From Candidatus Saccharimonadota bacterium (lineage in GTDB: Bacteria > Patescibacteriota > Microgenomatia > UBA1406 > GWC2-37-13), in the NCBI GenBank assembly GCA_016432445.1, contig CP066689.1:660001-692000 (forward strand): DNA of 32,000 nt, in the 5' to 3' direction. The notes below the pieces were generated by a model. The model was not told the DNA's origin and did not search any database. It was given only the letters and a program-made list of their open reading frames with translations. Position 1 is the stretch's first letter. The number at the start of each line of letters is the position of its first letter. The position numbers were made by a program, and so were the translations under genes. Shown one piece after another: positions 4,630-10,178 of this stretch.

Positions 4630-5625
4630 ATGGACGATCCGGGAAAACTTTTAGACAATCTCCGTGACAAACTTAATAATGTTAAATCTTCTACCGATAT
4701 TGAAAACCTTCGCATTGAGTTCTTGGGCAGAAATGGATTAGTTAATCAGCTCTTGCAAAAAATTAAAGACGTCGCTCCAGATCAAAAGAAAGAATACGGA
4801 CAAAAAGTCAACACACTAAAATCTCAAATAGAAGAATTACTTCAAGACGAAGAAAAAGAGTTTAAACAAACAACTACATTAAATATTGATATCACTTTAC
4901 CTGGAATCAAACCCAAAGTGGGCAACCTTCATCCAACAACAATAGTCATAAGAAAAATCAATCAGTTCTTCCGTTATTTAGGCTACAGCGTTTACGAAGG
5001 CCCAGAGATTGAAACCAATGAATTTAACTTTGAAAAATTAAATCTCCCAAAAGACCATCCAGCTCGAGAACTTGCCGACACTCTTTATATACAAGAACCC
5101 GAATATCTTTTAAGAACTCATACCTCTTCTGTTGAAACAAGAGCTATGACCCAGGAAAAACTTCCATTAAGGATTGTTGTTCCTGGTAAGGTTTACCGAA
5201 ACGAAACCTCAAATCCTACCAATAATTCCATGTTTTATCAGTATGAAGGACTTATTGTTGATAAAAATATAAGTATGGCTGATTTAAAAGGTACTCTTAT
5301 TGCTTTCGTAAAGTTTCTTTATGGACAAGAAACAAAAACCAGATTCAGATGTAAATATTATCCTCAGGTTGAACCTGGTGCAGGACTTGATGTAGAATGC
5401 AAGTTTTGTCAGGGAAAAGGATGCTCAGTATGTAAATATCGCGGCTTTATTGAGGTCTTAGGTTCAGGTATGGTTCATCCTAACGTTTTAAAAAATTGCG
5501 GTATTGATCCAAAAGTTTGGTCAGGATTTGCTTTTGGTATGGGTCTAGACCGTTTAGTAATGCTTCAATATGGAATTAATGATATTAGAAAACTTTATAG
5601 CGGGGAACTAGTTTATAAAATATGA
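4630..5625 (+). CDS. pheS: phenylalanyl-tRNA synthetase alpha subunit
   Basis: DHPARELADTLY, the CKFCQGKGCSVCKYRGFIEVLGSGMVHPNVL zinc-knuckle segment and GFAFGMGLDRLVML are present. Confidence 0.95.
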   Translation: MDDPGKLLDNLRDKLNNVKSSTDIENLRIEFLGRNGLVNQLLQKIKDVAPDQKKEYGQKVNTLKSQIEELLQDEEKEFKQTTTLNIDITLPGIKPKVGNLHPTTIVIRKINQFFRYLGYSVYEGPEIETNEFNFEKLNLPKDHPARELADTLYIQEPEYLLRTHTSSVETRAMTQEKLPLRIVVPGKVYRNETSNPTNNSMFYQYEGLIVDKNISMADLKGTLIAFVKFLYGQETKTRFRCKYYPQVEPGAGLDVECKFCQGKGCSVCKYRGFIEVLGSGMVHPNVLKNCGIDPKVWSGFAFGMGLDRLVMLQYGINDIRKLYSGELVYKI

Positions 5626-7577: not shown

Positions 7578-7895
7578 ATGTTAACTAAGGACGATTTATT
7601 GCAAATTAAAGAACTCATAGTTGAAGTCGTTCAAACTGAGACCAGAAGAATTGTAAAGGAAGAACTTGAACCTTTTAGAAAAAGTGAAGATGTTCAATTT
7701 ACAAAAATTAATGAGCGTTTTGATAAAATTGATAGGCATTTTAAAAGAATTGATTCTAAATTCTACAAAGTAGATGCTACTTTTAGGAAAGTTGGCAGAA
7801 GTATAAATATTGTAATTAAGGGATTTGATACAACATACCTAGATCTAGAAAAGAGAGTGAGTTCTATAGAAAATCATAGAAATCTTATTCCATAA
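7578..7895 (+). CDS. hypothetical coiled-coil protein with 7-residue repeats
   Basis: 105-aa ORF preceded by TTGTTT-17-TAAAAT-6 nt-ATG. It contains an internal repeat ERFDKID RHFKRID SKFYKVD ATFRKVG. Confidence 0.6.
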   Translation: MLTKDDLLQIKELIVEVVQTETRRIVKEELEPFRKSEDVQFTKINERFDKIDRHFKRIDSKFYKVDATFRKVGRSINIVIKGFDTTYLDLEKRVSSIENHRNLIP

Positions 7896-7905
7896 TTTTG
7901 TCCAC

Positions 7906-7991
7906 AAAAAAAGCCCTAAGTGATTATCGTTGAAAATTGCGTGTTACGCAAGTGGGGAGCAACGTTGCTCCCCTGTGAAAACCACTAGGGC
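7906..7991 (-). terminator. compound (three-way-junction) intrinsic terminator of the minus-strand island operon
   Basis: On the minus strand GCCCUAGUG (7983-7991) pairs with CACUUAGGGC (7913-7922), followed by U7 (7906-7912). Enclosed are a perfect 8-bp hairpin GGGGAGCA-ACGT-TGCTCCCC (7954-7973) and TGCGT-gtt-ACGCA (7938-7950). Confidence 0.55.
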
Positions 7992-8029
7992 TGGATTACG
8001 CACGTCATTGTGCGCTTCGCGGAAAGCCT

Positions 8030-8281
8030 CTACCTGTGGCGTCGGCATAGACGTGGTAGTTTTAACGGTTGTCCGCTGCCAGTGGTCATCATGACCTTAG
8101 ATGACAATAGAAACAGCGTTATCACCAAGATGATTATCACGATGTCAGTCAACCCAATAACGGATGTTTGTATGGCATGAGCAATGTAAACGCCGGCCAC
8201 AACACCCGCCACCCAGAACACTACAACCGAGCCAAAGAATGGTCCGATGATCTGCCAAAATGAATCGTTTGGCTTTTTCAT
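8030..8281 (-). CDS. small membrane protein (2 predicted TM helices, strongly basic C-terminal tail)
   Basis: The preferred start is ATG at 8281 (MKKPNDSFWQ..), 5 nt after a strong SD AGGAGGTGA. The ORF-track start at 8317 has no such signal. The C-terminus is KLPRLCRRHR. G+C is well above the flanking genome. Confidence 0.65.
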   Translation of the reverse strand: MKKPNDSFWQIIGPFFGSVVVFWVAGVVAGVYIAHAIQTSVIGLTDIVIIILVITLFLLSSKVMMTTGSGQPLKLPRLCRRHR

Positions 8282-8285
8282 TTTC

Positions 8286-8507
8286 TCACCTCCTTTCTGC
8301 GTGAACAGATTGCCCACAAAAGATCAAAACCGAACCTGGCATTAAAATAACTAATGCTACTAGAAATAACTCATCAGGACTTATACCGGAAACGGTTACG
8401 ATCCGCGCGATCCGCAAAATTATTGCCACACCCATGATTAGCAGACTAATCCAGGTCAACACCTCTCCTACACGAAACATTCTTGACACCAAGCACGCTC
8501 CCTTCAT
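8286..8507 (-). CDS. small membrane protein (2 predicted TM helices), start uncertain
   Basis: Hydrophobic ORF whose TGA stop is embedded in the SD of the downstream ORF (AGG AGG TGA). Alternative starts are ATG 8480 or TTG about 8453 (preceded by AGGAGAGG). It has the same elevated G+C. Confidence 0.55.
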   Translation of the reverse strand: MKGACLVSRMFRVGEVLTWISLLIMGVAIILRIARIVTVSGISPDELFLVALVILMPGSVLIFCGQSVHAERR

Positions 8508-8547
8508 TTAGTCAATCTTCGAGTGAAGACTGCCAAACAAAGGATAA

Positions 8548-8624
8548 TGAATCGATTCACGATTCAAGAAGCAAGATTCATGAATAAAACATTTCGTGAA
8601 TCCTGAATCATGAATCTTGAATCA
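8548..8624. repeat. inverted arrays of heptad repeats (GATTCAN x4 facing TGAATCN x4)
   Basis: The left array is GATTCAC GATTCAA GAAGCAA GATTCAT (8554-8581). The right array is TGAATCC TGAATCA TGAATCT TGAATCA (8597-8624). The 12-nt palindrome TGAATCGATTCA lies at 8548-8559. Confidence 0.85.
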
Positions 8625-8669
8625 TTGTGATATATTATCTTCTATTTAGCAATCTCCACTTTGCTTTCC

Positions 8670-8707
8670 GCCAAGCTTAGCTTGGCTAGGGCAAGCTCAG
8701 CTTGCCC
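8670..8707. repeat. two tandem perfect palindromes sharing the core CAAGCT-N-AGCTTG
   Basis: GCCAAGCTTAGCTTGGC lies at 8670-8686 and GGGCAAGCTCAGCTTGCCC at 8689-8707. Their centres are 20 bp apart. Confidence 0.85.
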
Positions 8708-8776
8708 GCCAATTGTAAAAGTGCAAAGAAATTTATCTTAAACGGCTTTTGCTTAAGATAACTTATTTCCACAGAT

Positions 8777-8785
8777 ATTATAGCA
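8777..8785 (-). promoter_or_regulatory. candidate extended -10 (TGcTATAAT) for the minus-strand island transcript
   Basis: The reverse complement of 8777-8785 reads TGCTATAAT. The -35 is weak (TATCTT). This would give a leader of about 260 nt before the first island ORF. Confidence 0.35.
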
Positions 8786-8815
8786 AAAGACTATCGGGTA
8801 AGATAAAATTTAAAA

Positions 8816-9367
8816 ATGGACAAATTAAAAAAACTTGAAGCAATAGCAAAGAAGATTGAAAATTGTGACGAATGTAAAATAGGAAAAATAGGCAAAGCCG
8901 TTGTTGGTGAAGGTAATCCAGATGCTGATATTATGTTTATTGGTGAAGCTCCGGGAAAAGAAGAAGCCAAGGTTGGCCGGCCATTTATTGGCCGATCTGG
9001 AAAACTACTTCGGTCGTTAATCAGAGAAGCAGGATTAAAAGAAGAAGATGTTTATATTACTAGTCCAGTTAAGTATTTACCCGAAAGAGGCACTCCCACA
9101 AAAGAAGATATTGTCCATGGACGGAAATATTTGTTTGAGCAAATCAATATCATCCAACCAAAAATTTTAGTGCTTTTAGGAAGAGTCGCTACAGAAGCTG
9201 TAATTCAAGAGAAATATCCTGTGATGAAAATGAGGGGAAAGATAATTGAGAAAGATGGAAGAAAATATTTTCTCACTTTGCACCCAGCTGCAGTTTTAAG
9301 AAACCCCCCAAATAGAAAATTCCTCATCGAAGACTTCCAAAAACTCAAAAAACTACTAAATAGTTAA
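8816..9367 (+). CDS. uracil-DNA glycosylase, family 4
   Basis: GEGNPDADIMFIGEAPG and GRPFIGRSGKLL motifs, an N-terminal CDEC, and HPAAVLRN near the C-terminus. Confidence 0.9.
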   Translation: MDKLKKLEAIAKKIENCDECKIGKIGKAVVGEGNPDADIMFIGEAPGKEEAKVGRPFIGRSGKLLRSLIREAGLKEEDVYITSPVKYLPERGTPTKEDIVHGRKYLFEQINIIQPKILVLLGRVATEAVIQEKYPVMKMRGKIIEKDGRKYFLTLHPAAVLRNPPNRKFLIEDFQKLKKLLNS

Positions 9368-9413
9368 TAGTCCACTTCCATTTTACGGCTAATCAACCTA
9401 CGCGGTTGCCAAT

Positions 9414-10178
9414 TCAGGAAAAATAACTTAAGACTTCTTGGTGCAATAAGCCATTAGTGGCAATTATTGACTGACTTTCAATAGTAAACGGTTTTCCTTC
9501 TATATCAGTAACTTTCCCACCAGCTTCATGGATAATGCATGCAACTGCCGCAACATCACAGATTTTAGTATAAGCTTCAACGACAACATCAATCTTACCC
9601 GAAGCTAAAAAATGAAATGGCCAAAATTCTCCATAACACCGGCAGGCTTTGACCTTACTCGCCAGCTTTGTGAGCTGTGATAAATTACCTCTTTCGTTAA
9701 AATATTTAATATTTCCATAACTCAAGTAAGCGTTTTCTATATTACTTATTGATGAAACATTAACTTTTCTTTTATTTAGATAAGCGCCTTTACCTTTTTG
9801 AGCATACATTAATTCTCGAAGAGCCGGAGCATTAGATACTCCTACAATAAACTCATTATTTTTTACTAAAGCAATTTGTGTTCCGAAAAATGGTAACTTC
9901 CTTATGTAGTTTTTGGTTCCATCTATAGGATCGATAATCCACACGTACTCCGATTCTTTATTACTAACTCCTGTTTCTTCTCCTAAAAATCCATGATCAG
10001 GGAATACTTTTCTAATAGTTTCAATAATTACTTTTTCTGATTCAGTATCAGCTAGCGTTACTGGAGTAGAATCAGTTTTATAACCTACTTGCGTACCTTT
10101 TTGATAGTAATGAAGAATAATCTCCTCGGCTTTTTTAGCTGCATTAAGAGCTACTTTTAAAAATTCATCGTTTTCCAT
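9414..10178 (-). CDS. suhB: inositol monophosphatase family protein
   Basis: FLGEE and WIIDPIDGTKNY motifs. It starts 2 nt after the PBP1A stop. The symbol is family-level only. Confidence 0.8.
   Translation of the reverse strand: MENDEFLKVALNAAKKAEEIILHYYQKGTQVGYKTDSTPVTLADTESEKVIIETIRKVFPDHGFLGEETGVSNKESEYVWIIDPIDGTKNYIRKLPFFGTQIALVKNNEFIVGVSNAPALRELMYAQKGKGAYLNKRKVNVSSISNIENAYLSYGNIKYFNERGNLSQLTKLASKVKACRCYGEFWPFHFLASGKIDVVVEAYTKICDVAAVACIIHEAGGKVTDIEGKPFTIESQSIIATNGLLHQEVLSYFS

Follow-up and report, generated by a model that had tools for sequence, protein, structure and literature searches.

A compositionally foreign islet with two candidate membrane-peptide genes in a Patescibacteria genome

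How does a short, G+C-rich stretch with its own apparent genes, leader and terminator come to stand among conserved genes in a low-G+C (0.34) Patescibacteria genome, and does it encode anything? The stretch in question, an islet at positions 7905-8710 with two minus-strand open reading frames (ORF1 and ORF2), lies in a window of 32,000 nucleotides (nt) of contig CP066689.1, the whole stretch of DNA that was analysed here, from a tiny bacterium of groundwater (Candidatus Roizmanbacteria). The 806 nt of the islet have a G+C content of 0.448, the maximum of all 806-nt windows (mean 0.340, standard deviation 0.033; next peak 0.401). The explanation we favour, and consider on balance probable, is an operon that was acquired horizontally and is complete in itself: two genes for membrane peptides whose translation is coupled, with gating at the RNA level. 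A preliminary description had pointed to an abrupt G+C island from hand counts of 33/60 and 29/60 in the islet and 15/60 in the host; the counts are exact on recount, and the sliding-window values bear the island out as the window-wide peak.

Composition, synteny and borders of the islet

G+C content reaches 0.60 in the twin palindromes of the leader, 0.49 in the 3' untranslated region (UTR), 0.47 in ORF2 and 0.44 in ORF1, with host-like values in the extended leader hairpin (Table 1) and in the 105 nt nearest udg (0.26). G+C at third codon positions (GC3) is 0.55 in ORF2 and 0.42 in ORF1, against 0.18-0.28 in eight host genes. The islet also differs in its translation signals. Essentially none of the about 29 host genes in the window has a Shine-Dalgarno (SD) sequence, and in at least 8 of about 30 a TATAAT-like box ends 5-9 nt ahead of the start codon (starts inspected include 4630, 12840, 15145, 24304 and 27179 on the plus strand and 10181 and 29079 on the minus strand), which suggests that initiation in the host is mostly leaderless or SD-independent. 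The islet ORFs are SD-led, with donor-type signals in an SD-less host.

The strongest evidence of foreign origin is synteny with a relative. The gene order in the window is thrS-infC-rpmI-rplT-pheS-pheT-hyp105-islet-udg, followed by a convergent inositol-monophosphatase-like gene and PBP. The left neighbour is hyp105, a gene of 105 amino acids (aa) at 7578-7895 whose protein is identical to NCBI QQG43911.1 from a Candidatus Roizmanbacteria metagenome-assembled genome; it stands between the islet and pheT, which the preliminary description had wrongly taken for the adjoining gene. A relative (L177, JGI 3300027835; udg 67% identical) has thrS-infC-rpmI-rplT-pheS-pheT, a hyp105 homologue, a 128-bp spacer, udg and PBP, the homologue being a 64-aa ORF whose N-terminus matches that of hyp105 (pairwise E = 1e-5). 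The islet is absent from this orthologous spacer. Since hyp105 and udg are 920 bp apart in the window vs 128 bp in L177, and since the 105 nt next to udg have host-like composition, we conclude that a lineage-specific insertion of about 0.8 kb between the two genes gave rise to the islet, a size with which the borders proposed earlier agree. In other relatives pheT is joined directly to PBP or different cargo lies there, including a udg remnant, and the pheT-PBP interval is therefore a hotspot of gene turnover; further udg contexts are non-syntenic. The borders cannot be fixed to the base because the udg of the nearest relative in the collections searched is only 67-72% identical (best match 72%). 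Similarity between the islet flanks is trivial only.

Could the islet be an artefact of assembly, or a set of native housekeeping genes? We give practically no credence to either. Logan contigs from six runs agree with the window at 100% identity, three of them across both junctions; a chimera is excluded because independently assembled contigs from several samples carry both junctions, which contradicts the break at the boundaries that had been raised as a concern. A native origin is contradicted by GC3, SD usage and the synteny with L177. The earlier impression of a foreign-looking, self-contained module has thus held up, on GC3, SD sites, the islet's own terminator, its absence in a syntenic relative and the presence of both junctions in independent assemblies.

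Two small ORFs and the RNA that frames them

The tandem hydrophobic ORFs are present on the minus strand as first described (8286-8507 and 8030-8281), each with two transmembrane (TM) segments. In both, a short loop that is neutral or acidic joins the two hydrophobic segments, and the two ends of the peptide are basic; by this positive-inside pattern both peptides are predicted to be double-pass with N-in/C-in topology. In ORF2 the helices lie at about residues 11-37 and 41-61, the first Gly/Ala-rich and the second very hydrophobic, and the C-terminal tail is basic (+6) and ends in the KLPRLCRRHR that had been noted. AlphaFold2 models are plain helical hairpins, with a predicted local distance difference test score of 71 for ORF2 and 76 for ORF1. 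Besides the start given in Table 1, ORF1 has in-frame starts at ATG 8507 (8286-8507, 73 aa), TTG 8492 and ATG 8480; an SD-like AAGGGAG at 8498-8504 lies 5-8 nt ahead of TTG 8492 and GTG 8489. At the junction of the two ORFs, the TGA stop of ORF1 (8286-8288) sits within the SD of ORF2, AGGAGGTGA, as the preliminary description had also seen; this arrangement indicates that the two ORFs are translationally coupled.

Are these ORFs coding? T is enriched at the second codon position (0.44 in ORF2 and 0.50 in ORF1, vs 0.20-0.29 at positions 1 and 3), and a same-strand ORF pair with two TM segments each appeared in 0/1000 shuffles of the islet. RNA folding gives z-scores of about 0 to -2 within the ORF bodies vs about -8 in both UTRs, and since the ORF bodies are unstructured while the flanks fold strongly, the data argue for coding sequence rather than a structured RNA gene. 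Because the codon-position pattern and the TM pair come together with SD sites, unstructured ORF bodies and a downstream intrinsic terminator, ORF1 and ORF2 quite probably are genuine genes, or were so until recently. A structured non-coding RNA or a repeat like a miniature inverted-repeat transposable element (MITE), in which the ORFs would be accidental, is highly improbable: the very strong folding of both flanks, including the 139-nt hairpin, and ORF lengths within chance speak for it, but there is no Rfam family match, no excess structure in the ORF bodies and no second copy of the element in the window, and the codon periodicity, SD sites and TM pattern point to coding. The 139-nt hairpin was itself considered as a MITE and the idea was dropped, as no second copy of it occurs within the window.

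All leader, UTR and terminator folds are predictions from one sequence, with no homologues for covariation. The elaborate terminator begins 37 nt past the ORF2 stop codon. Its outer stem (7913-7925/7980-7992) is predicted to enclose two inner hairpins (GGGGAGCAAC/GTTGCTCCCC at 7954-7973 and 7937-7951), with a minimum free energy (MFE) of -56 kcal/mol (z -5.6) that 0/200 shuffles matched in stability; the region 7875-8024 folds with a z of -7.8. The leader, too, is strongly structured, with a z of -8.75 for 8481-8780. Its longest hairpin holds about four TGAATCN heptads per arm, in arrays at 8554-8584 and 8593-8623. The arm 8522-8538 is common to the base of this hairpin and to the small hairpin, in which its alternative partner is 8508-8521, so the two pairings are mutually exclusive and form a possible switch. 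The palindrome core CAAGCTNAGCTTG has 4 matches vs 0.05 expected; the twin palindromes (-25.7 kcal/mol) could be two RNA hairpins or tandem operator-like DNA sites. Of the symmetric elements listed in the preliminary description, the hairpin at about 8734-8760, the tandem palindromes, the heptad arrays and the three-way-junction terminator are present; the small hairpin placed at 8530-8545 is found instead at about 8508-8538.

The two ends of the transcript may also meet. The 14-nt segments 8014-8027 and 8663-8676 are 93% complementary and pair in the full-length MFE fold (probability of being unpaired about 0.1), and the UTR-UTR duplex reaches -59.3 kcal/mol vs -46.0 +/- 5.4 in shuffles (P about 0.017), a strength that we regard as suggestive, not decisive. 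In the same full-length RNA the SD of ORF2 is predicted to be paired with 8234-8243 (probability of being unpaired 0.13). Both candidate promoters of the unit lie in the host-like spacer (8712-8785; G+C 0.26), divergent from udg. As a separate observation, the best -10 box of the islet, the minus-strand TATAAT at 8777-8782, lies on the same bases as a plus-strand TATTAT at 8776-8781, so that divergent transcription, to udg on one side and the islet on the other, would contend for a single site.

Taken as an operon, the islet (~7900-8710) would have entered a short spacer between the conserved small coiled-coil gene hyp105 and udg in the Candidatus Roizmanbacteria lineage. The minus-strand unit would begin with a promoter that lies within or beside the former spacer, followed by a leader of ~200-290 nt that is hairpin almost throughout, then ORF1-ORF2 and the elaborate intrinsic terminator. 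ORF2 would be translated only once ribosomes finishing ORF1 open its sequestered SD, and the full-length mRNA would close on itself through 8663-8676 and 8014-8027, in competition with one leader hairpin, which would amount to gating at the RNA level.

Table 1. Features of the islet and its upstream spacer (RNA folds, TM helices, translation signals and promoters are predicted)
Feature	Position	Strand	Description
Intrinsic terminator of the islet operon	7906-7992	-	Three-way junction 7913-7992, then U7 at 7906-7912
3' UTR hairpin	7998-8015	-	Together with a 14-nt segment, 8014-8027, complementary to leader 8663-8676
ORF2	8030-8281	-	83 aa; frame open to 8317; two TM helices
ORF1	8286-8489	-	67 aa from GTG 8489; two TM helices
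Shine-Dalgarno of ORF2	8288-8296	-	Perfect AGGAGGTGA, 7 nt ahead of ATG
Small hairpin	8508-8538	-	Abuts ORF1 start region; -14 kcal/mol
Extended leader hairpin	8522-8660	-	139 nt, G+C 0.32; core of inverted TGAATCN heptad arrays
Twin G+C-rich palindromes	8670-8686, 8689-8707		Shared core CAAGCTNAGCTTG, 20 bp apart
TTAAGA-18-TACAAT	8741-8712	-	Candidate promoter, consensus match
AT-rich hairpin	8730-8764	-	Arms 8730-8741 and 8753-8764; between/over candidate promoters
Extended -10, TGcTATAAT	8777-8785	-	Candidate promoter, consensus match

Orphan status, neighbouring genes and the case for a relic

Both ORFs are orphans in every collection searched. Neither matches Pfam, NCBIfam, PHROGs or PADLOC; all other islet ORFs are without a Pfam match, as is an artificial ORF1-ORF2 fusion, and the idea of a single frameshifted gene with four TM segments was rejected. 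These profile searches gave no more than sub-threshold DUF7248 and DUF1361. ORF1 and ORF2 are not paralogues of each other. In a word-indexed search of 5.8 billion protein clusters both matched only themselves, and ORF2, when run with HMMER against all of 1.84 billion representatives, gained only a repetitive, low-complexity protein of 1009 aa. Translated DNA scans were added because gene callers can skip such ORFs; those of JGI metagenomes, IMG/VR, INPHARED phages (tblastn) and PLSDB plasmids gave no relative, so that the same two-ORF module, which the preliminary description had proposed to look for in metagenomes, did not turn up in the JGI scans. DNA searches with the whole islet against phages and plasmids were empty, as were a sequence search of the PDB and a fold search of BFVD. 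Rfam, applied to the whole window at gathering thresholds and to the islet at permissive E-values, gave only far-sub-threshold microRNA-like matches to the long hairpin; ARAGORN found nothing. No donor is identifiable in any collection searched, and the window holds no second copy of the islet elements.

Several leads from the structured elements were followed and given up. Three TGAATCN heptads in a row match 83 viral contigs, but these are unrelated microsatellite-like arrays that form no family. One phage lineage in IMG/VR (L117 5910-5994, L141 275-359 and L155 4824-4915) has inverted TGAATCN/GATTCAN arrays flanking a terminator-like hairpin, a layout as at 8554-8623, and many other viral contigs have direct heptad arrays of variable number in intergenic regions. 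The twin-palindrome pattern has no viral match. A 20-nt palindrome of the terminator is also present in two phages unrelated to each other, where it is an ordinary terminator and the flanks are dissimilar. An IS200/IS605-like element was rejected, there being no remnant of a Y1 transposase in any frame, and an integron attC site likewise, the hairpin having no R'/R'' core sites.

What, then, weighs against an acquired operon? ORF length is within chance: dinucleotide shuffles of the islet give an ORF of at least 95 aa in 25% of cases (P = 0.25) and two of at least 73 aa on one strand in 7% (P = 0.07). Gene callers predict ORF1 and ORF2 on short contigs and skip them on the longer contigs L001-L003, and the protein collection, which records both flanking genes from NCBI, has neither ORF from there. 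With no homologue found, neither conservation nor selection can be adduced for translation of the ORFs, and an SD-less host may translate them inefficiently. Promoter-like consensus sites are no commoner than in shuffles, and by simple counting ~0.3 chance matches of 14 nt between 5' and 3' ends are expected in a region of this size. There is no integrase, transposase, tRNA, att site or convincing target duplication in the islet or at its borders, no lysin, phage gene, antitoxin or regulator nearby, and no match to a holin, toxin or defence profile.

The main rival draws on much of this. It takes the islet for a relic without function, a piece of donor DNA that came to rest in a variable spacer and is neutral there, with ORFs and signals that are leftovers, not or barely expressed. 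The ORFs are orphans without partner genes, uncalled on long contigs and unrecorded from NCBI, in a host that does not use SD sequences; and the pheT-PBP interval is a variable hotspot, with a udg remnant in L007, the closest relative in GTDB. Yet the two ORFs and their SD sites are intact, as are the coupling junction and the terminator, a strong extended -10 box with a consensus match faces the operon, and the sequence is identical in all sampled populations, though these may be one clone. On this evidence we regard a relic as rather unlikely.

The surroundings of the islet offer some further observations. The hyp105 protein is coiled-coil-like and assigned to no family; its gene has a 21-nt tandem repeat at 7698-7754, and its N-terminus (MLTK.DL..IK.L) is kept in the 64-aa ORF that follows pheT at the corresponding place in L177 (4678-4872). 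The hyp-udg spacer of L177 holds a 59-aa minus-strand ORF (4813-4992) that has one hydrophobic segment, overlaps the end of the hyp gene and is unlike ORF1 and ORF2; it is probably a chance ORF. In L007 (PheT 52% identical) the pheT-PBP interval, 7853-9650, holds a 169-aa membrane ORF, a 45-aa N-terminal udg remnant (60% identical) and a 173-aa ORF taken as putatively Nudix-like. To the right of the islet and udg lies the inositol-monophosphatase-like gene, on the minus strand at 9414-10178; L177 has no such gene between udg and PBP. Logan contigs with udg all end at 9408 and those with the inositol-monophosphatase-like gene at about 9381, in at least seven samples, a consistent break of the assembly graph in the spacer between the two genes (9381-9408) that is possibly a population variant. 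In three samples Logan contigs break within ORF2 or the 3' UTR, at 8003/8032, 8072/8100 and 8140; these breaks could be due to low coverage or minor variants.

Likeness to known systems

If the islet is an operon, what might its peptides do? By analogy they may assemble in the cytoplasmic membrane as a pair that perturbs it in the manner of holins or small toxins, or as a toxin with a membrane-bound partner, rather than as a housekeeping subunit; this is the weakest step of the explanation we favour, and we hold it to be doubtful. The preliminary description had suggested an uncharacterised accessory system, of which the foreign, self-contained part stands and the function as a system remains conjectural. 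A bolder version, which we think quite unlikely, is an undescribed selfish or defensive module in a genome of the candidate phyla radiation (CPR), with co-translated two-helix peptides acting as toxin and partner or as a two-component pore. Its mRNA would be silenced by the 5'-3' closing helix and a switchable leader, in which the 139-nt heptad hairpin would alternate with the small hairpin alongside the twin palindromes; processing or some unspecified signal would then activate it.

The preliminary description found the ORFs reminiscent of holin/antiholin pairs or membrane toxins. The architecture is indeed alike, but it is accompanied by no match to any holin, toxin, phage or defence profile, by no lysin or phage gene nearby, by no demonstrated antisense RNA and by no homologue. 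Class II holins and pinholins, such as S21-68 of phage 21, have ~70-85 aa and two TM helices in N-in/C-in topology, of which the first is rich in Gly and Ala; their C-terminal tail is highly basic, and a second small membrane gene often lies beside theirs. ORF2 resembles them in size, in its two TM helices and predicted N-in/C-in topology, in its Gly/Ala-rich first helix and in its basic tail, with ORF1 as the second small membrane gene. These features, together with the coupled tandem arrangement, would fit the remnant of a prophage lysis cassette in which a class II holin and an antiholin or second holin outlasted the decay of the phage. Unlike class II holins, however, the islet ORFs show no sequence or profile similarity, with neither a PHROG nor a Pfam holin match, and lack a dual-start motif with its own SD; no relative appears in IMG/VR, INPHARED (tblastn) or BFVD folds; the window contains no endolysin, spanin or any other phage gene; and the terminator follows directly after ORF2, the usual place of a lysin gene. 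We therefore consider a lysis remnant decidedly improbable.

A different parallel is offered by type I toxin-antitoxin (TA) loci with locked mRNAs, among them hok/mok/sok, AapA/IsoA and TxpA/RatA. Like these, the islet has small hydrophobic ORFs, of which the second would be coupled to the first (compare mok-hok), and heavily structured UTRs at either end; long-distance pairing between the two ends and occlusion of the SD are predicted in silico. In a locus of this type, 5'-3' pairing would keep the toxin mRNA locked and an antisense RNA would control it, arising for example by read-through or from a plus-strand promoter-like site at 7867-7896; plus-strand terminator-like sites lie at 8039-8054 and 8254-8273, antisense to ORF2. 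These antisense elements are, however, weak consensus matches only, and no antisense RNA gene has been demonstrated. Known type I toxins are mostly shorter than 60 aa with one TM helix, whereas ORF1 (67 aa) and ORF2 (83 aa) are both longer and have two TM helices apiece; there is no match to an Rfam antitoxin or toxin-leader family; and the islet is single-copy in the window, while such loci are usually multicopy or plasmid-borne. A type I TA-like locus is very unlikely on these grounds.

The islet is best placed as an orphan case of a familiar class, the small horizontally acquired islet, with which it shares the outlying composition, atypical codon and translation signals, absence in a relative and location in a variable intergenic hotspot. 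As it stands it is one orphan islet, and such islets are common in genomes; its interest lies mainly in an SD-led operon in an SD-less CPR host and in its unusually elaborate RNA framing. The islet also makes plain that small genes of foreign composition are passed over in ordinary gene calling, and it provides a natural test of whether SD-less, largely leaderless CPR hosts decode foreign SD-dependent operons. If the peptides are made, they would represent a new family of small membrane proteins and a clean case in which a reduced, episymbiotic CPR genome recently took in genes from a donor that initiates translation in another style. Unlike typical ORFan islets, this one comes without an integrase, transposase, tRNA target or clear direct repeats, and it is exceptionally small (0.8 kb), a complete operon as far as its predicted parts go, and resident in a reduced-genome, SD-less CPR bacterium.

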